Part shown: one piece after another, positions 13,545 to 62,490 of the stretch
Layout: each line of letters opens with the position of its first letter
Position numbering within the stretch: position 1 is the first letter of the stretch
NCBI GenBank assembly: GCA_937876125.1
Contig: CALEHF010000263.1
Coordinates: 3,025-67,024 of the forward strand
Length of the DNA: 64,000 nucleotides
Source of the DNA: an uncultured bacterium
Lineage (GTDB): Bacteria > Planctomycetota > UBA8108 > UBA1146
Reading direction: 5' to 3'
Notes under the pieces: generated by a model
The model's input: the letters and a program-made list of their open reading frames with translations, nothing else
Databases searched by the model: none
Told to the model about the DNA's origin: nothing
Program-made: the position numbers and the translations under genes

Positions 13545-13872
13545 GCGCCCGAGGTTGGGCCCGAGCGTCCGCGGTCATCAAGTACGCCTCTCTCACCTCT
13601 TTGAGACCCGCCGCGAGTTTCGCTGATTGACACAGCCCCATCCGGCCGATAGCTTTGGAAGCTCGCCCGTTTCAGCGGGCAAGACTCGAAGCCGCAAGAC
13701 TCGTAAGGAAACCGACCCCATGCGTCATCTCGTATCCCTCACTGCTACGACCCTTCCGTGTCCGCGCCAAATGTGCGTGTGGCACCGTACGTTTATTCGT
13801 ACGTGGGGCCCCGGCAGGATCGAGGAGGCGAGACGATAACGCTTTGAGTTAACGTCGAAACCGTTTCGAAAA

Positions 13873-13907
13873 CCGCCGGGAGCCCCAAGGGCCCCCGGCG
13901 GTTTTTT
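13873..13907 (+). terminator. Rho-independent terminator (GC hairpin ccgccggg...cccggcgg followed by T7)
   Basis: Perfect 8-bp outer stem plus 4-bp inner stem, then TTTTTTT at 13901-13907. Lies 330 bp downstream of the M23 gene stop. Confidence 0.6.
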
Positions 13908-14141
13908 TCGTGCTGTGTTTCTTGGTTCCGCCGCTGGCGCGGATGAGACCTTGGAACTCGAGAGGTCTTGATACGGAGCGAGTCAGAAGTTTTTTCGTTG
14001 GCCGATGGGGCCTATCGGAAGGAGCGCTCGGAAAGGTCGCTCGCTTTCAGAAGACTGCCGTTGAGGTGAGACTCATCTTCGGCGCCCAGAGCGCCGAACA
14101 CCCGTGGTTGCTTCGCGCAGCCTCACTTGAAAGGAACTGTC

Positions 14142-14669
14142 ATGTCGGCTCGGACGACTGGATGTGAAGATTTGCCTTTGGCGGACCTCACCTCCGGAGA
14201 AAGCGCATCTTTGACAAGCACCCGCCTCTCTCCCGAGACGCATGCGGCGCCCCGCGCTCGCGTGTCGTCGGATGAGACTGTGGTTCTTCAGATGTGTCGT
14301 CCGAGCCCACAGATACCCGATCCACGCAACTCGAGTCGGTCGGCCGCAGGCTCGACCCCAACGGTCCAGGTCCTCGCGGATCGCGGCATCCCCTTCGTCA
14401 TCGTCGAGACTCAAGATCCGCCAGCACCGATCGAGTCGATCGCCGATCGCGGCATTTACTTCACGACGACCGGCCAGGAGGAAGCACCGGCTCCCTCCAA
14501 GGAGTCACGTCCGAATCCGATTCCACGGCGACAGCCGCGCCGGACAACTCTCTCGAGCGCCGACTGGTCCGCACTCCTCGGTGCACTGAGGGACAAGGCC
14601 GACCGCCTCGACCTCTCGAAATTCAAGCTCGAAACCGCTCCGACGGTCACCGAAGGAGCAACCCAGTGA
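14142..14669 (+). CDS. Hypothetical protein (internal direct repeat LADRGIPFVIVETQD / IADRGIYFTTTGQEE)
   Basis: ORF with AAGGA RBS 7 nt upstream of ATG 14142; no recognisable family; region has many competing ORFs. Confidence 0.3.
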   Translation: MSARTTGCEDLPLADLTSGESASLTSTRLSPETHAAPRARVSSDETVVLQMCRPSPQIPDPRNSSRSAAGSTPTVQVLADRGIPFVIVETQDPPAPIESIADRGIYFTTTGQEEAPAPSKESRPNPIPRRQPRRTTLSSADWSALLGALRDKADRLDLSKFKLETAPTVTEGATQ

Positions 14670-14925
14670 ACTCATCATCAGTGCCACCTCCCCCCCAAGT
14701 TTCCGCCGCCGGTTGGACTCACCATCCCATTCCGGTAGCGGGACTGTCCTTGAGCCTGCCGCCTCTACCGCGCCCCCTCTGGTGGAGGCGCGGGCCAAGG
14801 GTTTCCAATCGTACTTCCCCTTTCCCACGCAAAGCGCCTCGGCGACTCCACTGGAGCTGCCGAGGCGCGGCGATTTGAGTGAGAAGATGAGTGGGTGAGA
14901 GAGAGCCACCAGATCCCGGAGCGGG

Positions 14926-15513
14926 TTACCCCTTCGGGCGGCTCGCGGGCGCTTCGGACTTCACCTTCTTCGCGATCTTCAGCTCTCCGAGCTTCTTCGC
15001 GAGATCGCTCCCCGCGGTTTTGACACTCACTTTCGTATCGATCGCGATGAGCTTCCCGTCTTTACCGATGTAGACAGTGTGGCGATTCGAGTATCCCGCC
15101 AGAGAGAGTACGCCCATCGCGCGGGCAGCCTTCTTCTCGGGGTCCGCAAGGATCGGATAGGTGACGCCGAGCTCCTTGGCGAACTTCGTTTGGGTCAGGA
15201 CGTCGTCGACGCTCGCCGCAAAGAGCTTGACGTCGAACTCGGAGATTTTGGACTCGCTGTCACGCAGCGAGCGACACTCTGCCGTTCAGCCGCCGGTGAA
15301 GGACTTCGGGAACCAGGCGATGACGACCGCCTGCTTTCCGACGAAGTCGCGGAGCCGGTACTCTTTCCCGTCAGATCCCTTCAGTGTGACGTCTGGGACC
15401 ATGGCACCGACCTTCCACGGCTCTGCCGGTTTCGGGCGCGAGTCCTGAGCCAGAGCCACGGACCCCATGATCGTCATCAGCAACCCCAGGGTCGCGACGA
15501 GTATCCTCTGCAT
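14926..15513 (-). CDS. Secreted BCP/PrxQ-type peroxiredoxin (AhpC/TSA fold) with in-frame UGA at the peroxidatic Cys position - candidate selenoprotein
   Basis: Two ORF-track ORFs (15286..15513 and 14926..15117) are the same frame separated only by TGA at 15286-15288. Read-through gives WFPKSFTGG-U-TAEC...KFAKELGVTYPILADPEKKAARAMGV...TVYIGKDGKLIAID, i.e. the Prx motif FTxGC(T)xxxC with U replacing Cp and a resolving Cys 4 residues later. Signal peptide MQRILVATLGLLMTIMGSVALAQD. Hairpin 13 nt downstream of UGA. Confidence 0.7.
15252..15272 (-). promoter_or_regulatory. Putative bacterial SECIS-like hairpin downstream of in-frame UGA
   Basis: mRNA GCUCGCUG-CGUGA-CAGCGAGU: 8-bp stem (one G.U), 5-nt apical loop containing GU, beginning 13 nt 3' of the UGA. 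Confidence 0.45.
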
Positions 15514-15537
15514 CGTGTTTCCTCTCTCGAGTTCGAT

Positions 15538-16821
15538 TCAATTCGCGGGGTTCGTTTTTTTCAGCGAAGGGTACACAAGTTCAGCGGTGTGGATCCGCGG
15601 AGGCGCTGCCACCTCCCCCTCGCCCCCGAGAGCCTCGGTCCAGGCGATGATCACGCGCTTCCCGCGGGTCTCGATCCGAGGAAAGCCCGCGCTGCGCTCG
15701 GTCGAGGTCCTCGCGACGAGCAAACTCGCTTGAGGGGTGCCGTCGGACCCGATGGCGCGTACCCGAATCTCCCCGCCTTCATCGCCACGCTCGAGCCAGC
15801 ACGCGATCCAGCCGCCGTCGGGGCGCGAGACCAGATCGACTCGTCCGACGGGATTGCCATCGTCGATGGCGATCGGCTTCGAGAACTTGACGCCTCGATC
15901 TCCGGATGACGCGAACAGCACACGCGGCCGCTCCGCCTCGGTGTACCAGAGAGCGGCGACCCGTTTTCCAGCGACGGCGAGGGCGGGGCCATTGACCGGG
16001 CACCCTTCTTGGTTCCAACCGTCGTCGTGGATCATCGCCGGCGTGGAGAGAGACTTCTCGCCGACGCGCACCCACGCGATATCGCGCACTTCTTGGTCGG
16101 ACCGATCGCGCCAGGCAACGAAGACATCCTTGCCTGAAACGACCGCGGCGGTTTGACAACACTCGCAGGTGCGATCGTCGATCTCTTGCTCGCCGGTCAC
16201 CTGGCCGAGTCGATCGATCATCGCGGTTCGGATCGACATCCCTCCGCCGTGGCCATCCGCCTCGTCCAACGCCCCGTGTCCTCCCGCCATCGCGCGGCCA
16301 TCCAACCATACGGCGCGAAAGTGCTGCTCATCGAGGGGAACCAGGGACACGAAGCCGTGCTCGGTCGCCGAGCGATCGGAGTGCGGAGTAAACGGAGTCC
16401 CCCACGTCTTTCCATGATCGGATGAGATGCTCATCCGCACGCCGTAGGAGTAGCTCCCCGTCCCTAGGCGCCCGAGCCAGTGGGCAGCCAGAGTGCCGTC
16501 CTCGAGGGCCGCGAGCGAAGGGAAGTCGGCCCAATTCACGAACCAATCGCCGCCGGACGCGACGGTTCGAGGCTCGGTCCAACCACTGTCGGTGAGGCGG
16601 CAAAAGCGCAGTTGAGTCGCGCCCTTCTCGCCCGGTTCGACCCAACTGAGATACAACTCGCCGTCAGCTCCCAGCGCGAGATTCGGCAGTTGGCTCCGCT
16701 CGCCCGCCGGGTTCGAGAGTGGGCGAATGACGGGGCGAACGCTCGCGGGGGCCCCCTTCACCTTGGGATCAGCTTGGGCCGGAGACATCGAAGAAGAGAG
16801 GAGGAGGATCAGGCAGATCAT
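15538..16821 (-). CDS. Secreted BNR/sialidase-like repeat (exo-alpha-sialidase family) protein
   Basis: BNR Asp-box motifs SSDHGKTW, SGDRGVKF; signal peptide at internal Met (MICLILLLSSSMSPAQA). Confidence 0.65.
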   Translation of the reverse strand: MICLILLLSSSMSPAQADPKVKGAPASVRPVIRPLSNPAGERSQLPNLALGADGELYLSWVEPGEKGATQLRFCRLTDSGWTEPRTVASGGDWFVNWADFPSLAALEDGTLAAHWLGRLGTGSYSYGVRMSISSDHGKTWGTPFTPHSDRSATEHGFVSLVPLDEQHFRAVWLDGRAMAGGHGALDEADGHGGGMSIRTAMIDRLGQVTGEQEIDDRTCECCQTAAVVSGKDVFVAWRDRSDQEVRDIAWVRVGEKSLSTPAMIHDDGWNQEGCPVNGPALAVAGKRVAALWYTEAERPRVLFASSGDRGVKFSKPIAIDDGNPVGRVDLVSRPDGGWIACWLERGDEGGEIRVRAIGSDGTPQASLLVARTSTERSAGFPRIETRGKRVIIAWTEALGGEGEVAAPPRIHTAELVYPSLKKTNPAN

Positions 16822-25444: not shown

Positions 25445-28400
25445 TCACTTCAATCCGGCGAGGAATTCGAGCAGATCGCGGATCTCACAAGGCTCGAGCG
25501 CGAAGTGCACCTGGGGCATCGCGCTCGGGGTCGCCGTGTTTCCATAGCCCTCGACGATCTGAGCGTTCGGCAGAATGATCGACTCGAGAATCTGAGCGCG
25601 CGTCTGGCGACCTCCGATCCCCTCGAGGGAGGGGCCCGCCACGCCGCCATCTCCCGCGGCGATATGGCAGCGACTGCACTGGGCAACGATGTGCTCGCGA
25701 AACACCCGACCGCCCCGTTCGGCACTCCCCCCGACGAGCGCGACTCGATACGGGGCGAGCTCGTCCCCCTCCGGCAAAGATTCCCGGTAGCGCCCCAAGC
25801 GATCGGCGAGCGCCTCCCCCCGGACCTCTCCTGCACGCGTGATCTCGAGTCCGAGCTCAGGAGGGAGCGTGCCCGCGAGGAACTGATCGAAGAGCGGAAC
25901 CAGGCGGTGATCGGCGGCGCGACTTTTCATCGCCGCGAGCGACGCGATCGTCCCCTGACGCTCGGCGATCGGCCCCTCGGCGAGGACGGCGTCGATCTCG
26001 GCGAATCTCGCTTCCACGTCAGCCATGAGCTCACGCGCGCGCACGCGAAGGAGCGGCGCCTCGCTCTGCCGGGCGGCAAGAATGGCCTCCGCGCGCTCAG
26101 AATCCATCCCGACCAGTTGCTCGAGCGCGACGATCCGAGACTCGACCGACTCCACGGAGCTCGAGAGAATCGAACGGTTCAATGCGACGGGGAGCGGCAC
26201 GCGCAATGCCACGGCGAGACGACGCGCAGCGGCTCCGATATCGCCCCTAGAGTGAGTCGCGATGGCGGCGAGGGTCTCTCCGATGGCGGGCACAAGGGTC
26301 TCGACGCCGCGCTCCCCCTCGAGGACCTCGCGCACCTCTCCCTGCACCCGTTCACGCGGTTCGGGCTCGCTCCACTGGGCGAGGGTCGCGAGCGCCTCTC
26401 GGCGAGCAAGGCTCGGAACGCCCGGATCGGCGGCGAGCGCGCAGAGCGCACTGGCGTTTTCTGCCCCCCCCACCTCGAGGGCGGCGGCGATCACTCGACG
26501 CAGGAGCGGGAGATTCCCTTCCGGCTCCCTCCCGCCGCCGATCGGCTTCTCCCACGTGCCATCGGGGAGTTGCCAAGCAATCTGCAGATGGTCGCCGCCG
26601 GTGCCTTCGATCTGGCGTGCGTCGAGGTGGATCTCCATTCCGGCGCGCAGGGGGATCACCGCGGAGACCTGGCCTGGCTTCCCCTCGAACACATCGCGTC
26701 CGACCCAACCATCGATCTTCGCGATCTCCCGTCGTTTTGCTTCGACCCCGCGCACCGAGAAGAACAGCACCGATTGGTCATCGCTCGCCAGTGCGAAACG
26801 GTAGTCGCCGTCGGCGGGCACGAGAACGGTGCCGGTGAGACGACAGGCGTAACGGTCGCCGATCTCAGAGCCGGTGTCGGCACGGGTGAGCGGTGTACGA
26901 TCCGCGGGCTCACCACGAAAGAGAGCGTCATCGCGCGGATCGGCCGACGTGGGGACGATCGTGGGAGAGAGTGGGTAGATCTCGCGGGTAAATGTAACGG
27001 CGGTCTCCGACCGCGCATCCGAGAGGGACTGACCTGTGCCGAGCTTCCTCGCGAGCCCCGCGAGAGCGGGGCGTGCGGCCACGATCGGAACGTCGTAGAT
27101 CGCGCGGGCGCACTCGGTGACGATGCGCGGATCGGCATCGTCGAGGTAGCGAGCGATCCTCGCATCCCCGAGACGGCGCAGAGCGAGCAGGCACACCATC
27201 CGGGCCGAGGGATGCGGATCGTCAGCGGCATTCACCAACAACTGTGGGGAGGCAACTCGTGCCAAGGCGATCGCGATCAACTGGCGAAGCGTAGGATCCA
27301 TCGCCCCGGGCTGATCCCCGATCGCGCGAGCGCACTCGAGCAGCGGCCCGGTCGCGTGGGTCCCCCCCACCTTCCCGAGCGCTTCGATCGCCCGGGCGAT
27401 GACTCGGCCGCTCTGGTCGCCGAGACGTGCGGTCAGGTCGGGAATCGTCGCGGGATCACGGATTTCTCCTGCCACCTGGCACGCCACCGCCCGTACGCGA
27501 GGATCGTCGTCTGAGATCAACGATTGGACCGTATCGCGCCCCTTCTGGGTGAGTTTCCCCGAACGACCGAGCTGCCCCAGTCCCCACAACCCATGCAGAC
27601 GCGGAAGGGGGTCACCGTGCTCTCGGGCGTAGGCGCAGAAGAGTCCCTCGCCCGACGCACCCCGCGTCGCGAGCTCCCACTGCGCTTCGAAGCGAACCCG
27701 GCGATCGCGATGACGGAGCAGCATCGCAAGCTCGATGGCCGGCCGTTCGAATCCACCGCGAAACAGCTCGGCGACGCGCAACGCCGCCTCAGTGTCGATC
27801 CAATTCGGGTCAGAGATCGCGTACAGCCGCCCCTCCCCGTTCTGCACCCACCCCGCGCCCCAATCGGCCACATACACCCGACCGTCGTAGCCGAACTCCA
27901 CATCGGTGCAGAGAACGTGGTCGATGAATTTGTGTTCGTCAACCATGGCGAAGCCGCCGCCGACCTCCGTCACCGCGAAGCTGCGCACCGAAGAACTCGC
28001 GGCACCGCCGGTGAAGTCACAGACGAAGAAGTGGTTCTGGTAGCGCGGCGGAAGCCCTTGGCCGGGGTAGTGCGTCAAGCCGGAGGGTCCGCTGGTGATG
28101 TGCGCAATCGGCGGCACGACCCAGGCCGGTTGGGCATCGTGCTCTGTCCACCAGATTCCCTCTTGGATCCACGGCCCGCGACGGTTCGACCCCTCGAGGG
28201 TCTGATACTCCATCTGCCAGCCGCTCTCTCCCCCTTCGATGATGTGCACCAGGCGCGCGCGGTCGCCGCCGTCGGAATTGTTGTCGACAGAGAACAGATT
28301 GCCGTCGTCATCAAAGGCGAGCTCTTGGGGATTGCGCAGGCCATGGTGGACCACTTCGAGGTTCGATCCGTCGAGCTCACAGCGCAGCACCGCCCCGGCG

Positions 28401-29173
28401 TTCGGGGAGTCGAGCACCTCCCCATAGGCGGGTTCGACATGGAATCCGCGATCGCCGATCGACCAGTACAGCCGTCGATCCGGGCCGATGACGAGCCCAT
28501 GCATGTCGTGGCCACGGAGTGCGGTCCGGATGCCGTACCCGGTCGACATCACTTCTTTCGAATCGGCACGACCGTCGTCATCGGTGTCGCGCAGGAGATA
28601 GAGGCTCGGAATGTTGGTGTAGAAGAGATCGCCGCGATCGAAGAGCACCCCAGAGCCGGTGCCGTCGAGCGGAGCGCGATAGTTGTCTGAGAAGATGGTC
28701 ACGGTATCGGCGACACCGTCGCCGTCGGTATCCGCGACACGACGGATACGATCTTCAAACTCGCGGTAGTACTCCATCCCACCGACCCGTCGGTCCTGCC
28801 ACTTCTCGTACATGGCGAGACGATCGTCGATCGTTTGCAGCGAGAGGTCATCGAGGAGCCAGTAACTCGAGGATCGGTTGTCTTCGACGCCGCGCTCTTG
28901 CCGGAACGTCTCGGCAACATAGACGCGCCCCTTGCCGTCGAAACAGAACGCGACCGGGTCGGTGACGAGAGGCTCGGCGGCGAAGATCTCCTTGGTGAGC
29001 CCGACCGGGATGGCGAGCGCATCAAATGCGCGCAGTGCAGAGGCGGACCAGGGGAGGCGCGCTTTGCCAAGGGGCGGGGCGTCTCCTGGCTCATCCGCGG
29101 GAAGGGACAGCGTCGACGCGAGCAAGAGAAGAGTGGCGAGAGCGCAGATTTGCGTCGAGGAGCGAGCGAGCAT
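25445..29173 (-). CDS. PVC-type giant membrane-bound dehydrogenase-domain / HEAT-repeat / PA14-like protein with C-terminal cytochrome c (CxxCH) domain
   Basis: N-terminal signal peptide, beta-propeller region (GSGVLFDRGDLFYT..., DDGNLFSVDNNSDGGDRARLVHI), HEAT repeats (DPRVRAVACQVAGEI...). PA14-like segment (DRYACRLTGTVLVPADGDYRFALASDDQSVLF). C-terminal heme motif CSRCH. Confidence 0.7.
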   Translation of the reverse strand: MLARSSTQICALATLLLLASTLSLPADEPGDAPPLGKARLPWSASALRAFDALAIPVGLTKEIFAAEPLVTDPVAFCFDGKGRVYVAETFRQERGVEDNRSSSYWLLDDLSLQTIDDRLAMYEKWQDRRVGGMEYYREFEDRIRRVADTDGDGVADTVTIFSDNYRAPLDGTGSGVLFDRGDLFYTNIPSLYLLRDTDDDGRADSKEVMSTGYGIRTALRGHDMHGLVIGPDRRLYWSIGDRGFHVEPAYGEVLDSPNAGAVLRCELDGSNLEVVHHGLRNPQELAFDDDGNLFSVDNNSDGGDRARLVHIIEGGESGWQMEYQTLEGSNRRGPWIQEGIWWTEHDAQPAWVVPPIAHITSGPSGLTHYPGQGLPPRYQNHFFVCDFTGGAASSSVRSFAVTEVGGGFAMVDEHKFIDHVLCTDVEFGYDGRVYVADWGAGWVQNGEGRLYAISDPNWIDTEAALRVAELFRGGFERPAIELAMLLRHRDRRVRFEAQWELATRGASGEGLFCAYAREHGDPLPRLHGLWGLGQLGRSGKLTQKGRDTVQSLISDDDPRVRAVACQVAGEIRDPATIPDLTARLGDQSGRVIARAIEALGKVGGTHATGPLLECARAIGDQPGAMDPTLRQLIAIALARVASPQLLVNAADDPHPSARMVCLLALRRLGDARIARYLDDADPRIVTECARAIYDVPIVAARPALAGLARKLGTGQSLSDARSETAVTFTREIYPLSPTIVPTSADPRDDALFRGEPADRTPLTRADTGSEIGDRYACRLTGTVLVPADGDYRFALASDDQSVLFFSVRGVEAKRREIAKIDGWVGRDVFEGKPGQVSAVIPLRAGMEIHLDARQIEGTGGDHLQIAWQLPDGTWEKPIGGGREPEGNLPLLRRVIAAALEVGGAENASALCALAADPGVPSLARREALATLAQWSEPEPRERVQGEVREVLEGERGVETLVPAIGETLAAIATHSRGDIGAAARRLAVALRVPLPVALNRSILSSSVESVESRIVALEQLVGMDSERAEAILAARQSEAPLLRVRARELMADVEARFAEIDAVLAEGPIAERQGTIASLAAMKSRAADHRLVPLFDQFLAGTLPPELGLEITRAGEVRGEALADRLGRYRESLPEGDELAPYRVALVGGSAERGGRVFREHIVAQCSRCHIAAGDGGVAGPSLEGIGGRQTRAQILESIILPNAQIVEGYGNTATPSAMPQVHFALEPCEIRDLLEFLAGLK

Positions 29174-36231: not shown

Positions 36232-37785
36232 TCAACGAGCCTCGGAGGCCTGGGTCCGCTTCTCGATCTTCTTCCCGGTGATCGCGAGGTTTCTCTTCGG
36301 GATCGAATAGATCAGCGCTGTCACCGCGGTCGCCGAAATTCTCGAGTCACGACCGTAGCCCGCGTTGTCGCGGTTCGGTTGGTAGTAGAAGCTGCCGTCG
36401 GAGCACTGCGCGAGGATGAACCACCAACGGTTCAGGTCCATCAATCGACGAAACGCAGCCGGTTCGACAGCGGCTGCAAGCGCCGCGTAGCCCATTCCCA
36501 TCACTGGCGAGCCGTGGGTGTCGGGGAAGCTTTCGGGGTGCTCCCCGATCAACTTCGCATGGTCGCGCGCGCGCTTCGCATACTTCTCGTCGGCGTAGGG
36601 GCTGAGGAAGTTCGCGACGCCGGCGGCTCCGGTGCGGCCCATGTCGGCCCAGTCGCGCGCCCCCGCCACTTGATCCTCGTACCAGACATATCCGTTCGGT
36701 CCGGTTCCGCGGTCGAGGAAGTGGTAGGCGAAGTCGTGGCGCTCGCGATCGACCGCGATCCCACAGTGACTCAAGAGCGAAAACGCGAGTGCGCCCTGCC
36801 CCGTCAACATGCTGATCGGCCCATACCCCTCGAAGCCCGGGTTGTGCCCCCAACCGCCGTGGGAATCTAATGCGTCCTTCGGCAAGTCTTCGGGGCGATC
36901 CTCCTTCGTCTTCGGAGCGACCTGCGAGGCATCGATGAACTGGCTCGAGATCAGAAAGTCGTAGACCTCTTGGAGCTCGGGGAGCAGCCAATCTTCGCCG
37001 GTGGCGAGGTAGTACTCGCTCATCACGATCGCGGCGGCCATGTAGCGCCAGTTGATGAGCCATGAGGAGTCCTTGGCTTTGGTGGTGCGCGCATGCATGC
37101 GCACGTTCTTCTCGACCAAGGGGAGATAACGCGCATCGCCGCTCGCCAGAAGCGCGAGCGGGGCGAAGGTGTCGTGTGGTGGGCTGCCCCAAGAACCGTC
37201 CTCTTGCTGGTGGCGCGCGAGGTACTCGAGCAGCTCGGAGTAGATGAGATCAGACTTCGCGCAGCTCTTCGGAAAGCCCTTTGCGTACTGTCCGTACTTC
37301 GTGCCGACGTCGAGAATGACATCGAGCTTCTTCTCGTCGCGGACCAAGTCGAGGCGCAGCTTGCCGCGATTGGTTTTCTTGTTCTTGCCCTGGCACGCTT
37401 CAAGGGCGACGGCGAAGTCGAGAACGGGGCCCGCCGCTCCAAACTTGTCCATCCCGTAGCCGTTTCGGTGCGGGGTCACGAACAGTCGGCCCCCCGCCCC
37501 GACGATCCAATCCCCCACCTCTACCTTGCCGTGCGCGGGACTCGCTTCGAACACGTACCGGACCGCAAGAACGGTCGGTTGGTCGGCAAGCAGCTCGACT
37601 CGTAACCCGGTGATCCCGAGGTTGTAGAACCACCCCGGCACGACTGCGTCAGGCCCACCGTCGGCGCGGTCGTTCCAGGGACGCCCGTCTTTGTGATGGT
37701 GAACCTGCGCGGAGAGTGAGTTCGTCACGGACAGGAGGAGAAGGGCGATCCAGACCCCCATGCGTTTTCGTTCCACGATCGACAT
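36232..37785 (-). CDS. Secreted prenyltransferase/squalene-oxidase-repeat (alpha-alpha toroid) protein
   Basis: Signal peptide (MGVWIALLLLSVTNSLSAQ); QxxDGSWG / HGGWGHNPGFEGYGP repeats typical of terpenoid cyclase/prenyltransferase repeat proteins; GAGGAG RBS. Confidence 0.5.
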   Translation of the reverse strand: MSIVERKRMGVWIALLLLSVTNSLSAQVHHHKDGRPWNDRADGGPDAVVPGWFYNLGITGLRVELLADQPTVLAVRYVFEASPAHGKVEVGDWIVGAGGRLFVTPHRNGYGMDKFGAAGPVLDFAVALEACQGKNKKTNRGKLRLDLVRDEKKLDVILDVGTKYGQYAKGFPKSCAKSDLIYSELLEYLARHQQEDGSWGSPPHDTFAPLALLASGDARYLPLVEKNVRMHARTTKAKDSSWLINWRYMAAAIVMSEYYLATGEDWLLPELQEVYDFLISSQFIDASQVAPKTKEDRPEDLPKDALDSHGGWGHNPGFEGYGPISMLTGQGALAFSLLSHCGIAVDRERHDFAYHFLDRGTGPNGYVWYEDQVAGARDWADMGRTGAAGVANFLSPYADEKYAKRARDHAKLIGEHPESFPDTHGSPVMGMGYAALAAAVEPAAFRRLMDLNRWWFILAQCSDGSFYYQPNRDNAGYGRDSRISATAVTALIYSIPKRNLAITGKKIEKRTQASEAR

Positions 37786-37911
37786 CTTCTCCTCAATTCT
37801 GTGGTGGTCAGCCGGTGAGAGCGCGACTGAACCGTGATCGCTCTGGCACCTAATTCGATCAACAATCGCGAGTGGCCTCGCTCGGGGCCACCCCTGACGA
37901 AGGGAGTCTCG

Positions 37912-39060
37912 ATGTCTCGTCACGGATCCCAGCCTCGTACCGGATCACATCTAGGTCTCGAAGAGAAGCGCTGGCTCCTGGGGATCGGTCTCAGCATCGG
38001 CATCGGTGCAGTCCTGCTCGCACCGGAAAAGCTTGATGCGCAGGTCCCGTTTCGACGTGGCGACCTCGATGGCGATGGGCAAGTGGGGACGATGGCGGAC
38101 GTCTTGCTGGCGATCAACCCGTTCGCCATCTTCCCCTGTTCCGATGCCGGTGATGTGAACGACGACGGCCTCAAGAACATCCTCGATGGTGTCCACCTGG
38201 TGAACTTCCTCATCGGGGACGTGCCCGAGCTCCCCTTACCGGGGACCTTTGGCTGTGGGCTCGACCCGACCGACTTCGACGTGCTCGACTGCCATGCCTA
38301 CTCTACCTGCGCTCTGGTGACGGGCCTCCCCGCCTCACCCGATCACTCACTGCGGATCGAATCGGCGGAGGGAATCGTGGGCACGCAGATCGAGGTCTCC
38401 GTGCGATACGACAACCTATTCAATGAGCCCACTCAGGGGATCGCCCTCGGAGTCTGCCACGATGCCGGCCTCGCGACCCTCGTCAGCGTCGGGTTCGGTT
38501 CCGCGTTTTCTGAGCTCCCCGATGTATTCCTGATTCAGCAGTTTGCCGACGGTTGGACCGGGATGGCGATTTCCAGCGTCACAGGGATCGAGTTCATCAT
38601 GGGAGTCGATCAAGAGCTCTTTGTCGCCACGTACGAAACCGCAGCCAGCGGCGATCTCTCCCTCACAATCTGCGAAGGACTCGCGACGCCAGAGACGTAC
38701 ATTTCCCTCGCTGTGTCGACCTTTAGCGGGGTCGATGGCTTCGTGCCCCACATCGAGAACGGTGTGCTCACTTCGATCCCTGACCCACAGTTCAGGCGTG
38801 GTGATGCGAACGACGACGGAACGACGAACATCGCGGATGCCGTGTCCCTCCTCACCGAATTGTTCGGGAACGGCCCTGCCTCGCCCTGCGCCGATGCGGC
38901 GGACGCGAACGACGACGGCGCCCTCGACATCGGCGATCCGATCGCGGTCCTCAACACCCTTTTCGGCGGGAGCGGGCCGCCGTTGCCGGAGCCGGGATCC
39001 TCGACGTGCGGTGTCGATCCGACCGCCGATGATCTCCGATGTGCGGCGCTCTGCCCCTAG
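37912..39060 (+). CDS. Secreted protein with N- and C-terminal double dockerin-like modules (family member C)
   Basis: N-term FRRGDLDGDGQVGTMADVLLAINPF...PCSDAGDVNDDGLKNILDGVHLVNFL...PLPGTFGCGLDPTDFDVLDC; C-term FRRGDANDDGTTNIADAVSLLTELF...PCADAADANDDGALDIGDPIAVLNTLF...PPLPEPGSSTCGVDPTADDLRC. Confidence 0.65.
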   Translation: MSRHGSQPRTGSHLGLEEKRWLLGIGLSIGIGAVLLAPEKLDAQVPFRRGDLDGDGQVGTMADVLLAINPFAIFPCSDAGDVNDDGLKNILDGVHLVNFLIGDVPELPLPGTFGCGLDPTDFDVLDCHAYSTCALVTGLPASPDHSLRIESAEGIVGTQIEVSVRYDNLFNEPTQGIALGVCHDAGLATLVSVGFGSAFSELPDVFLIQQFADGWTGMAISSVTGIEFIMGVDQELFVATYETAASGDLSLTICEGLATPETYISLAVSTFSGVDGFVPHIENGVLTSIPDPQFRRGDANDDGTTNIADAVSLLTELFGNGPASPCADAADANDDGALDIGDPIAVLNTLFGGSGPPLPEPGSSTCGVDPTADDLRCAALCP

Positions 39061-39526: not shown

Positions 39527-39600
39527 GCCCCGTTAGCTCAGCTGGATAGAGCAGCCGCTTCCTAAGCGGCAGGTCACAGGTTCGAATCCTGTACGGGGTA
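39527..39600 (+). tRNA. tRNA-Arg (anticodon CCT)
   Basis: Cloverleaf: acceptor GCCCCGT/ACGGGGT, D-arm AGCTCAGCTGGATAGAGC, anticodon loop TTCCTAA (CCT), T-arm GGTTCGAATCC; discriminator A; CCA not encoded. Confidence 0.85.
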
Positions 39601-39603
39601 CTT
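39559..39603 (+). repeat. attL-like core: 45-bp 3' portion of tRNA-Arg repeated at 47360-47404
   Basis: Identical 45-mer ttcctaagcggcaggtcacaggttcgaatcctgtacggggtactt present at both sites. Confidence 0.8.
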
Positions 39604-45306: not shown

Positions 45307-46128
45307 GTGCCACGCATGAAGTTGCTGATTTGTTTTGCTGCCATACTTCACCTCACTCTTCCCTTGATCGGTCAGACCGGTGGTCAGTTTCAGGACTGGA
45401 AACGTGACGCTGCGAAGGCAGAGACTTCAGAGGATCGAATCGGGGCCCTCAACCGTATTGCGTGCGCGTCAGCTGAGGAGGCCAAAGCCTCCGAGATCGT
45501 GCGAGCGATCGCGGCCTCGCTGAAGGACGTCAATACCGGCGTTCGCGTACATGCCGCTTGATTACTCGGACAGTGCGAGGACCAGAACGATGCGCTGAGG
45601 AAACTAAAGTCGGCCCTCACCAGTGGCCGCAGTTCATTCCTCAAGGCACAGAAGGTCTTGAGAGTGACGGAGGACCAACGCTTTGCCACGATTCTCCGCT
45701 GGTGGGACATCAAGAACGACCCAAAGTCGGAGAGCGCGGCGGAGTCGGGGTCGTACCTCGCGGTTCTCGCGGCTGAACTCGCTCTCCTTGAAGACTACCT
45801 GGCCGCGCAGCGCAGACGAGACCGCGGACGAGAGTTCTGTCTCGCGATTTGCGAGAGCCTCTCGAAGCTGGAACAGGAGGCGGCTGCCGCCGAGGCCGCG
45901 GTCCTCAAGTTCTATGAAAAAGTCGCCGCGAAGTCGGTCGATCAGTGTGCCCCGTTCGCGCCGATTCTGCTCTCCTTCGGAACGCGACCCTGCTGGGCTG
46001 CGGTCGCAGAGTGCATCGAGGAGAACGATGCGCTTCTTCGCACCTGGAAAACGCGCCGCGAGCTCATAGACTCGTACGAGGCCAGGCGCGCCGAGGGCTC
46101 GCCGACAAAGCCTTCTCCATTCGAGTGA
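45307..46128 (+). pseudogene. Secreted HEAT-repeat protein interrupted by in-frame TGA at 45559-45561
   Basis: ORFs 45307..45561 and 45658..46128 share one frame; only stop between them is TGA at the variable position of a HEAT repeat (VRVHAA-*-LLGQ). No SECIS-like hairpin. Confidence 0.4.
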
Positions 46129-47206
46129 CCTTGTGGTCAAGAAGTAGACAAGCTTCGGAATCGGAGACACTCACCATCTTGGCAACAGTGCGGTGAGTGC
46201 GTCGGAGCAAGTGGCCGGTCTCTGAGGGCAGCGACTTCTCGCGCCACGTGGCGGTGGCGATCACCTTCTTCCCGTCATTCGACCGCGACGGGAATAAGTA
46301 GGGGTTGGGTCCGAAGAGAGCCTCTCCGACTCGAAGTGCTTCCTCGACGATCTCGATCATGGTGTCAGACAACGGCAGGTCGAAGCTACGGCCGCTCTTC
46401 ATGCGAGGTATCCGGATCGCGCGATTCTCCAGGTCGACTCAGTCTCGCCTCAGGCTCACCAGAGTCCCCGGGCGTAAACCTGAGAACAGCCCAAGCTGGT
46501 GCATGCAGCGACGAATCGGATTGTTCAACGCGACAACCTTTGCCAACCAACCGGGGAGATCCTCGGGCAAGATCACCTTGTCGGAGATTCTCTCCTTGTG
46601 ACGCGTCACGGCTGCCGTCGGGTTGGCGGGCAGGGAATCCGGGTCGTCTACCACTCGGAGTGCGAAGTCGTAGGCACTCCGCAATGCCGCCATAGACCGA
46701 TTCGCGGGGTACTTCCCGTGGTCCTTGGTGAGCTGCTCGTGGCGTGCTCGGCATGTGCTCCGTTTCAGCTCGGTGATCGGGAGCTCCGCCCAGTCCGCGA
46801 GGTACTTCGTGAGCATGTAGCGGAATCCGTCGATCGACCGGGGCGACAACTATCGCTTCGTAATGTCCGCTTCGTACTCGTCCCAGAGCCGAGCGACCGT
46901 CCAGGCCTCGGCGTGCTGAGAAGGGGCGTTGGGATCGATCCCACGCTTGATGTCAGCAAGCAGGGTCATGGCTTGTGACCGAGCGTCGTCGAGGATGATC
47001 TCCCCGACCCGGCCGAGCGTTCTCCGCACAGTCCGAACGAGCCTTCGTCGAGGCCGCTCCCCGGTGTAGAGATCAGCCTGGATCTTGAAGGACTTGGACT
47101 TCTGATTCACTTGGACGAAAAAGCCAGGGAGGGCGGAGTCGCGAAGCTGGTACGGCTTCCCGTTGAACTTGGCGTCTCGTATCTTGGCGTCGGTGAGTCG
47201 TGGCAT
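46064..47206 (-). pseudogene. Degenerate P4-type tyrosine integrase (three same-frame fragments separated by TAG and TGA, C-terminus lacking catalytic Tyr)
   Basis: N-terminal Arm-binding domain LTDAKIRDAKFNGKPYQLRDSALPGFFVQV. Core-binding fragment, then catalytic fragment with HLLRRTHRTVA / LLLDHK box II-like motifs. In-frame stops at 46850-46852 (TAG) and 46439-46441 (TGA). Confidence 0.7.
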
Positions 47207-47359
47207 GGCAGCTTCCTCTCGCGAACCGTGTGCGTGGGAAGCCCGAACCGTGTGCGAACCGTGGCACTAGCCGGTTGGCGAAGGTTCCTGTAGAAGTATT
47301 CGATACTAAGTGCTTATAGGCAAGGGACCTGACGGTCTGGGACGCGTAAGCCCTTGCGA

Positions 47360-49850: not shown

Positions 49851-51083
49851 TCACACATCTGTGGGTCCCGGCAGAGGCGGATCCAGCTCGATTCCACCAC
49901 GACACAGGTACATGAGCGCGATCAGCGGCTGCGGGCCGTGGAAGCCGAACGCGCGTCGCGCGATCATCCGAAGACGCGTGTTCATCTCTTCGACGATCCC
50001 GTTCGTGAGTCTCTCGTCCACGTACGCCAACACTCCGTCAAGGTGCTTCCGAATCGTTCGCGCTGTCTTCACGAACGGTTTTAGTTTCGACCGTGACGCC
50101 CAAGCTAACCAATCCCTCAATGCTCGCTCTGCCCGCCATCTTTGTTTGTACTCGAGCGCCTTTGCCAGCGTCTCTTTCAACAAGTATGCACGGAAGAGCG
50201 GCGCGTTCGACTTCTCAATCTCCCGCAGCTTCTTCTTCTCTCCGTCGTTGAGGCTCCATGGGTTCTTCAGCACGACGAAACGGCTGCGGAACAGGTCCTT
50301 GCCCTCGGGCGTGCCACGCAACTCTCGAAGCTCCTCACGTCGCACCGCATCGAAGGCGTCACTGGCCAGTCGTTGCACGTGAAAGCGGTCGAAGACCACC
50401 TGGGCATTGGGAAGATGCTCGCGAATCGCTTTGTGATAACCGGCGGACATATCGATCTTCGCCGCTTCGATCTCAGCACATCGCCTCGGTCCGAGTTCCT
50501 CGAAGAAGGAGGCGAGCGTTGTCGCTCTCGCACCAGGCCCAGCCCAGACGATGCGTCGACGGTCGTGATCCACGACAACGGTCAAGTACTTGTGTCGTCG
50601 ACGGTAACTGAACTCGTCGACTCCGATTCGTTTCAGGCCGTTGAGGCGCTCTGGATCGAGTCGATAGCCGACGACCCGATCCACGATCCGGCCCACTGTC
50701 GCCCAGGAGATCCCCATCAACTTTTGAACGGAAGTCTTGTCGGTTGACTGGGCGAGGTAAGCAGTGAGCCCCTCGAAATCGTGAGTGAAGCCGCTGTTGT
50801 GTGCAGCCCAAGGAACCGACTCCACGCGAACTCCACAGGTCGGGCAGCTCACGCGACGAGGGGCGTAGACGAGCCAGACTCGCGGGCGCCCGAGGCCGAG
50901 GTGGCGCCAACGTCGAGAGGAGACCGAGTCGAAGCCCGGCGCGGGAGCCCGACAAACGCCGCAACGAGGCAACTTGGCCCTCGGTCGCACGAAGACCAAG
51001 AGGTCCCCAGAGGAGAAGTCGAATCCCTGAACAAAGAGAGTAGTGATGCCGAGAAGTCGACGAAGTAGAGTCTTGGTGCGCAC
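49851..51083 (-). CDS. ISL3-family transposase
   Basis: N-terminal zinc-finger/HTH region (RCGVCRAPAP...CPTCGVRVESVPWA) and DDE_Tnp_ISL3 core (VDEFSYRRRHKYLTVVVDHDRRRIVW..., KIDMSAGYHKAIREHLPNAQVVFDRFHV). Confidence 0.8.
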   Translation of the reverse strand: MRTKTLLRRLLGITTLFVQGFDFSSGDLLVFVRPRAKLPRCGVCRAPAPGFDSVSSRRWRHLGLGRPRVWLVYAPRRVSCPTCGVRVESVPWAAHNSGFTHDFEGLTAYLAQSTDKTSVQKLMGISWATVGRIVDRVVGYRLDPERLNGLKRIGVDEFSYRRRHKYLTVVVDHDRRRIVWAGPGARATTLASFFEELGPRRCAEIEAAKIDMSAGYHKAIREHLPNAQVVFDRFHVQRLASDAFDAVRREELRELRGTPEGKDLFRSRFVVLKNPWSLNDGEKKKLREIEKSNAPLFRAYLLKETLAKALEYKQRWRAERALRDWLAWASRSKLKPFVKTARTIRKHLDGVLAYVDERLTNGIVEEMNTRLRMIARRAFGFHGPQPLIALMYLCRGGIELDPPLPGPTDV

Positions 51084-59584: not shown

Positions 59585-59778
59585 GAGTCAAGATGCTCCG
59601 TTTGCTAGCGACCGTCCTCCAAAGACCTGAAGAGGCGCGCGCCCCGGGAGAAAATCCGGCTGACCTTCAACGACTTGGATTTGCGGAGTCTTTGTGACCG
59701 TCTTCCCGTGACCTTCTTCCCCCAGATTCCCGGCCCGAACTCTTGAACTTGTCCAGAATCAGATCTACTCTGCGACCC

Positions 59779-60228
59779 ATGGACAAAGACCCCGCAAACC
59801 TCCTCAGAGAACACGGTCTCCAAGTGACGGCCCAGCGCCTGGCCGTGCTGCGGGCGGTCTCGGGCCGACCCCACTGCACAGCCGATGAGGTCGCCGAGGA
59901 CGTGCGCGCCGAGATCGGCGCCATCTCTCGCCAAGCGGTGTACGACGCGCTCCGGGTGCTCGCGGAAAAGCAGCTCATCGGGCGCGTCCAGCCCGCCGGG
60001 TCCCCCGCCCTCTTCGACCCCAGGGTCGGGGACAACCACCATCACGTCATCTGCCGCACCTGTGGGAAGGTCGTCGATGTCGACTGCGCCGTCGGCGAAA
60101 CCCCCTGCTTGACCGCCGCCGATCACTCCGGCTACCAGATCGATGAGGCGCAGGTGATCTATTGGGGCCATTGCCCCGAGTGTCTCTCGGAAAAGTCAGA
60201 GTCGGAGCCTTCGAGAACAGGAGCCTGA
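59779..60228 (+). CDS. Fur-family transcriptional regulator (FurA/PerR-like, upstream of katG)
   Basis: Fur fold: HTH ([19 protein letters not shown]), metal sites [12 protein letters not shown]...CPEC; furA-katG arrangement. Confidence 0.8.

Positions 60229-62490
<2,262 letters not shown>

Follow-up and report, generated by a model that had tools for sequence, protein, structure and literature searches.

We analysed a 64-kb stretch of DNA (hereafter the window) from an uncultured, probably planctomycete lineage and describe a minus-strand gene whose reading frame is interrupted by a UGA codon. Public gene calls place two open reading frames (ORFs) on the minus strand at this locus, one of 75 aa (15286-15513) and one of 63 aa (14926-15117; records L144-L147), and an AhpC-TSA match, a weak one, is on record for the N-terminal fragment only. 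The original prediction held that two adjacent same-frame ORFs are parted here by nothing but a TGA at 15286-15288, and that reading through it gives a contiguous protein of the AhpC/TSA fold. Both points were borne out. The 75-codon ORF is followed by the TGA and then by 119 same-frame codons up to a TAA, and the GC content at third codon positions (GC3) is equal on both sides of the UGA (0.82 upstream, 0.81 downstream). The Pfam AhpC-TSA match of the read-through protein runs across the UGA (residues 35-156; 93 bits versus a gathering cut-off of 26; E=1.7e-26), and the Redoxin model matches as well. We consider it highly likely that the region is a single gene for an exported AhpC/TSA peroxiredoxin in which the UGA is decoded as selenocysteine (Sec), with the resulting residue U76 in the peroxidatic position (Table 1).

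The catalytic set of a peroxiredoxin is complete in the read-through protein, comprising Pro69, Thr73, U76 and Arg144, and the predicted Sec sits in a T-x-x-U motif (F-T-G-G-U). The UGA had been proposed to fall where BCP/PrxQ enzymes carry their peroxidatic Cys, and the codon indeed aligns with the active-site Cys of both AhpE and E. coli BCP (the latter sequence taken from NC_000913.3). Alignment to the best 120 database homologues, which are 48-60% identical and span 75-95% of the read-through protein, gave the same picture: the UGA column is Cys in 116 of them, 'W' in three and 'R' in one, and it lies in the near-invariant motif WFPKAFTGG-C-TAEC. A second Cys follows four residues downstream, the pattern C/U-T-x-[EQ]-C being present in 120/120 of these homologues.

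The stop codon itself is conserved at the DNA level. In a species-representative genome collection, TGA occupies the same codon in two Acidobacteriota metagenome-assembled genomes (Candidatus Polarisedimenticolia and Vicinamibacterales), while relatives from Gammaproteobacteria and from other Acidobacteriota encode this residue by TGC or TGT. A metagenome scan was run with the pattern FTGG-TGA-TAEC only, which stops short of the hairpin described below, and found TGA at this codon in at least 120 contigs. Together with the window, at least 125 TGA-form loci with at least 121 distinct 63-nt sequences are at hand. Among the matches listed, 99 TGA forms are complete ORFs that continue for a median of 109 codons past the UGA. 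Identity between the Sec forms and the window protein is 39-63%, and the nearest relatives of the window protein are Sec forms themselves. Because a stop is kept at one catalytic codon across such wide divergence, with the downstream frame intact, the UGA does not reflect decay of the gene.

Directly downstream of the UGA, the mRNA can fold into a hairpin, GCUCGCUG-CGUGA-CAGCGAGU, with its 5' arm at 15272-15265, its loop at 15264-15260 and its 3' arm at 15259-15252. An 8-bp hairpin with a GU-containing loop 13 nt 3' of the UGA, at a distance compatible with a bacterial selenocysteine insertion sequence (SECIS), had been part of the original prediction, and we found it as described. It starts 13 nt past the UGA, places the loop 21 nt from the UGA and has a folding energy of -11.9 kcal/mol. 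The model of bacterial SECIS (bSECIS) elements given in a 2026 review (PMC13188914) comprises an apical loop of 3-9 nt with a G within its first two positions, an upper stem of 4-16 bp, 16-37 nt between UGA and loop, and a minimum free energy of -7.5 kcal/mol or lower. The window hairpin agrees with all four bSECIS criteria and carries G and U as the second and third nucleotides of its loop. A scan of the whole window at Rfam gathering thresholds returned a tRNA-Arg as its sole match; an in-frame SECIS hairpin such as this one gave no match to Rfam, and the scan is hence uninformative on the hairpin.

Comparison with relatives provides the evidence that the structure is under selection. Every TGA-form sequence is able to form a helix in the same register. 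We assessed covariation on 116 distinct 45-nt segments, using the 7-bp core helix and 500 shuffles. The core helix pairs in 96.7% of cells, a share that falls to 32-66% once the 3' partner columns are shifted by 1-3 positions, and compensatory changes on both sides are seen at 5/7 pairs. The covariation score of 0.231 was reached by none of the 500 shuffles (0.088 +/- 0.007), and RNAalifold independently predicts the same helix. Its outer pair links the third positions of codons +5 and +11 and occurs as G-C (63 sequences), C-G (20), A-U (13) and G-U (4). The window copy itself departs from the majority by two compensated swaps: its outer pair is C-G rather than G-C, and its loop-closing pair is G-C rather than C-G.

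The helix also leaves its mark on codon usage and on the encoded residues. In the TGA forms, third-position entropy is 0.31-0.76 bits at codons +6 to +10 (majority TCG CTC CGT GAG AGC), whereas the fourfold-degenerate Val, Ala, Pro and Gly codons in the rest of the stretch analysed show 1.35-1.64 bits. The hairpin codons of Sec forms encode S-L-R-[E/A]-S. Cys forms, in contrast, are highly variable at these residues (SMKEN, SFRDN, SMHEH and others), and SLRES occurs in just 5/116 of them. Among 17 Cys-form DNAs, 3-6 of the 7 pairs are retained, and most are without a helix. Judged from these comparisons, the hairpin is a bacterial SECIS element. Two Cys forms, L149 301-831 and L150 301-807 (TGC/TGT, CTAECKSLRESG), keep 6/7 pairs and the stem sequence of the Sec forms; they probably represent recent conversions between Sec and Cys.

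Assignment of the protein to the 'BCP/PrxQ type', as originally predicted, stood in part. BCP (PRK09437; 59.1 bits versus a cut-off of 140) and PrxQ (54.1 versus 260) are the top NCBIfam models. The label is approximate, however, because both scores fall far short of the cut-offs and because, among solved structures, M. tuberculosis AhpE matches best (E=1.3e-13), with yeast DOT5 and Sulfolobus Bcp proteins next in rank. We rejected a BCP/PrxQ equivalog on the basis of these scores and of the second Cys, which stands at +4 and not at +5. The PrxU, Prx-SUH, WAxxUGC and SelL-related selenoprotein models were rejected as the family as well, all of them scoring far under their cut-offs. By its sequence, the protein is an AhpC/TSA peroxiredoxin placed between the AhpE and BCP/PrxQ groups and the equivalog of no curated model.

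E. coli BCP (thiol peroxidase, b2480) shares 29% identity and a gap-free active-site alignment (FPKxxTxGCT...LRD) with the window protein, but it uses Cys instead of Sec, has its second Cys one residue further on, and is devoid of an N-terminal extension, BCP residue 2 aligning with window residue 31. With AhpE (Rv2238c; PDB 1xvw, 4x1u), FTG-x-C and NR-x-T align. AhpE differs in having Cys in place of Sec and no second Cys near the active site, and its aligned chain is without a signal-peptide-like N-terminus.

The protein had been described as secreted, and this view gains support from its N-terminus, which resembles a general secretory (Sec-type) signal peptide as does that of nearly all family members. 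By a heuristic count only, 96/98 Sec forms and 109/113 Cys forms have a comparable hydrophobic stretch, free of charges, at the N-terminus. The sequences thus suggest that the peroxiredoxin family is most likely exported.

Table 1. Features of the peroxiredoxin locus in window coordinates; functional assignments are predictions.
Feature	Position	Strand	Remarks
Complete selenoprotein gene (AhpC/TSA-fold peroxiredoxin, predicted)	14926..15513	-	195 codons; ATG 15513-15511, UGA as codon 76, TAA 14928-14926
In-frame UGA, predicted selenocysteine U76	15286..15288	-	peroxidatic position in P69-x-x-x-T73-x-x-U76
Second Cys, codon 80 (TGT), at U+4, candidate resolving residue	15274..15276	-	family-invariant
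SECIS hairpin (predicted) within the coding sequence (codons 81-88)	15252..15272	-	8-bp stem, 5-nt apical loop CGUGA
Conserved active-site Arg, codon 144 (SNRHT)	15082..15084	-	aligns with Arg of AhpE 'ANRGT' and E. coli BCP 'HRIS'
Predicted Sec-type signal peptide MQRILVATLGLLMTIMGSVALA / QD	15448..15513	-	positive n-region, uncharged hydrophobic core, A-x-A
Shine-Dalgarno-like GAGAGAGG	15521..15528	-	7 nt 5' of ATG; read from sequence
Possible transcript end: inverted repeat then TTT	14834..14868	-	17-nt arms, 88% complementary, ~58 nt past TAA

Several observations weigh against a Sec-decoded peroxiredoxin at this locus. Taken alone, the window hairpin is unexceptional: the fold of a 76-nt segment has z=-0.32, and 2.6% of all TGA trinucleotides in the window (63% GC) have an 8-bp hairpin 8-18 nt downstream. 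Single-sequence statistics of this kind are uninformative either way, which is why we took the significance of the hairpin from the comparison with relatives. Neither ARAGORN nor Pfam scans of ~35 ORFs detected selA, selB, selD or tRNA-Sec in the 64-kb window, which stems from a contig of 67.6 kb. The top named matches to HemL of the window come from Planctomycetota metagenome-assembled genomes (64-71% identity) and, taken with the DUF7133/HEAT/GSDH/cytochrome-c and DUF6288 proteins listed below, suggest an uncultured planctomycete as the source. Complete gene sets for Sec insertion are documented in several planctomycetes (PMC4807772), and by analogy the Sec trait is plausible in the source organism. 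Moreover, no conserved redox-partner or thioredoxin-like gene adjoins the peroxiredoxin, either here or at related loci. Finally, the Cys four residues downstream, which the original prediction had matched to the BCP resolving Cys, is present and invariant but adjoins the BCP resolving position rather than occupying it: in the gap-free alignment Cys80 pairs with the Ala that precedes the second Cys of E. coli BCP (+5). Since Cys80 is off the canonical position, its role as the resolving residue is a guess; since it is invariant in the best homologues, it is probably functional.

We wondered whether the locus might encode a genuine selenoprotein that is not a peroxidase. The U-x-x-x-C pair could instead act as an extracytoplasmic thiol/selenol-disulfide oxidoreductase, for example by reducing or isomerising envelope proteins, a role that has been proposed for the 'Prx-like thiol:disulfide oxidoreductase' selenoproteins. 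The predicted export of the protein, its two close redox residues with a +4 spacing that characterised BCPs do not use, and weak NCBIfam matches that include ResA, TlpA and SelL-related redox proteins are all in keeping with this idea. The Prx-like oxidoreductases are, like the window protein, selenoproteins of the Pfam family PF00578 (motifs UxxC/UxxU). However, they carry Sec in a thioredoxin-like UxxC (PMC1088965), whereas the window protein has U-x-x-x-C, retains the Thr and Arg peroxidase residues and shows the TxxU motif of Sec-peroxiredoxins. The full peroxiredoxin set of Pro, Thr, Sec/Cys and Arg is conserved, and the peroxiredoxin models BCP and PrxQ rank top in NCBIfam. We therefore regard an oxidoreductase as improbable, although it fares best among the alternatives to a Sec-peroxiredoxin.

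The UGA could also be a real stop, in which case the locus would be a pseudogene, carry a catalytic TGC/TGT codon mutated to nonsense, or consist of two small ORFs that have nothing to do with each other. This is how the public gene calls treat the locus, and TGA does serve as a normal stop in this genome. The window even holds a true TGA-interrupted pseudogene, that of an integrase at 46064-47266. Yet the same TGA recurs in at least 120 divergent sequences with an intact, conserved frame beyond it, the coding signal is equal on both sides of the UGA, and the TGA forms go together with a covarying hairpin. Recurrent independent nonsense mutation at one catalytic codon is not credible, and we give this explanation very little weight.

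Equally little weight falls on decoding of the UGA without selenium, as Trp, Gly or Cys, through an alternative genetic code or near-cognate suppression. Three of the best homologues, the JGI proteins P0040, P0049 and P0094, show W at the active site in their deposited sequences, and no Sec machinery is seen within the window. The DNA of both 'W' records fetched reads TGA and not TGG (L019 589-591, L020 837-839), so that the W is a translation artefact, as if genetic code 4 had been applied. Elsewhere in the window TGA ends genes in the usual way, including neighbours of the peroxiredoxin gene such as the one directly upstream. Catalysis would be lost with Trp or Gly as the peroxidatic residue, and decoding under code 4/25 has no use for a conserved SelB-type hairpin. 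Lineages that reassign UGA are typically AT-rich, unlike the window with its 63% GC. One wrong base in sequencing or assembly would suffice to turn a TGC/TGT codon into the TGA, but this explanation can be dismissed almost entirely: four contigs, each from a different ENA assembly, agree over all 588 bp of the gene, TGA included, and 19 contigs bear the 75-aa N-terminal fragment.

A Sec-decoded peroxiredoxin would be made and would work along the following lines, where we infer selenium insertion, export, peroxidase activity, the role of Cys80 and the reductant by analogy with characterised systems. According to the established bacterial Sec pathway, the hairpin would bind SelB.GTP.Sec-tRNA(Sec) as the ribosome comes to a pause at UGA76. 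Sec would then be inserted in place of termination, and translation would go on to the TAA at 14926. As suggested by its N-terminal sequence, the unfolded preprotein would pass through the Sec translocon to the periplasm or the exterior, with cleavage of the signal peptide. There, the selenolate of U76, activated in the pocket formed by Pro69, Thr73 and Arg144, would attack H2O2 or an organic hydroperoxide and be converted to a selenenic acid. Resolution of this intermediate, probably by Cys80, would yield an intramolecular selenenylsulfide, to be recycled by an extracytoplasmic thiol reductant.

Peroxiredoxins that contain Sec are no novelty in bacteria, as the original prediction had pointed out. 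The Sec-containing 'Prx' (TxxU, COG1225/Bcp, PF00578) entered the catalogue of bacterial selenoprotein families in 2005 (Zhang, Fomenko and Gladyshev, PMC1088965; PMC9312934; PMC13188914). The window protein shares with this family the AhpC/TSA fold, Sec in PxxxTxxU, a SECIS immediately downstream inside the ORF and widespread Cys homologues. It differs in that its clade has a predicted signal peptide and an invariant Cys at U+4 and reaches no curated NCBIfam cut-off. Experimental precedent for Sec in place of the peroxidatic Cys comes from PrxU of Eubacterium acidaminophilum (Soehling et al. 2001, as cited in PMC13188914). PrxU stems from a Gram-positive anaerobe, and the window protein belongs to another subfamily because it scores 35.8 bits against the PrxU model (NF040737), for which the cut-off is 270. 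As for the RNA element, the bSECISearch consensus and the fdhF SECIS of E. coli resemble the window hairpin in that the stem-loop follows directly on the UGA and has a small loop with G-U at positions 2-3. The E. coli fdhF SECIS has a bulged U; in the window no such U is seen, the helix being short and uninterrupted (7-8 bp) and its sequence clade-specific.

The gene is thus very probably an unannotated member of an already known type of Sec-peroxiredoxin, with an export signal, a +4 Cys and a clade-specific SECIS that may be particular to its clade. We put forward tentatively, and with somewhat less than even confidence, that these features define a distinct and uncurated clade. It would consist of exported selenoperoxiredoxins with a U-x-x-x-C pair and a SECIS of their own that dictates the residues S-L-R-[EA]-S of helix alpha2, would be common in environmental Acidobacteriota and probably Planctomycetota, and would be systematically mis-called as two fragments or as a Trp protein. 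If this holds true, many aerobic environmental bacteria would spend selenium on extracytoplasmic peroxide defence and depend on an extracytoplasmic reductant for it.

The main value of the locus lies in annotation. Public collections contain it, like at least 120 relatives, as truncated fragments or with an active-site Trp, and such mis-called records render both the catalytic residue and the selenium use of the organisms invisible to standard pipelines. A selenium-dependent and apparently extracytoplasmic peroxidase, as predicted here, adds to the oxidative-stress repertoire of this lineage. The set of sequences also provides an unusually clean example of how an RNA structure in a coding region constrains synonymous sites as well as amino-acid choice. 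What is known of selenocysteine decoding, or of the enzyme families that use selenocysteine, is not changed by it.

The peroxiredoxin gene lies among genes for a BNR-like protein, a gamma-glutamyltranspeptidase (GGT), HemL, an M23 peptidase and two-component systems. The BNR-like gene is located upstream, its TGA stop at 15538-15540 being 24 nt before the peroxiredoxin ATG. On the other side, the inverted repeat past the peroxiredoxin gene is a possible transcript end judging from its sequence; it is absent from the output of the terminator scan, whose T-run criterion it does not reach, and is confirmed solely as an inverted repeat. The ~1.4 kb between the M23 peptidase and the peroxiredoxin (13545-14925) have no convincing coding signal and no Rfam match, and the only gene called within them is a plus-strand ORF of 175-180 aa (14127-14669) with no Pfam match. 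The window neighbours (BNR-like, GGT, M23 peptidase) are not kept beside other Sec forms. At 41 Sec-form metagenome loci (including L054), a ~1000-aa, repeat-like protein rich in Ala, Glu and Arg is encoded on the same strand 0.3-3.3 kb downstream; this recurrent neighbour is no obvious redox protein and does not occur in the window.

A search for other UGA-interrupted genes in the window produced the integrase pseudogene as the sole coding-like case, which is no selenoprotein. This minus-strand tyrosine integrase is in three in-frame pieces (Arm-DNA-binding, SAM-like and catalytic Phage_integrase) separated by a non-TGA stop at 46850-46852 and a TGA at 46439-46441, and as a real pseudogene it contrasts with the Sec UGA. 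An ISL3 transposase (49851-51083, minus strand) and tRNA-Arg(CCT) (39527-39601) lie nearby, which suggests that the region is a decayed mobile element. A second peroxide-defence locus is found on the plus strand, where a Fur-family regulator (59743-60228) stands directly upstream of the catalase-peroxidase KatG (60274-62490). Elsewhere on the minus strand, the window encodes a large DUF7133/HEAT/GSDH/cytochrome-c protein (25445-29173) and a DUF6288 protein (36232-37923).

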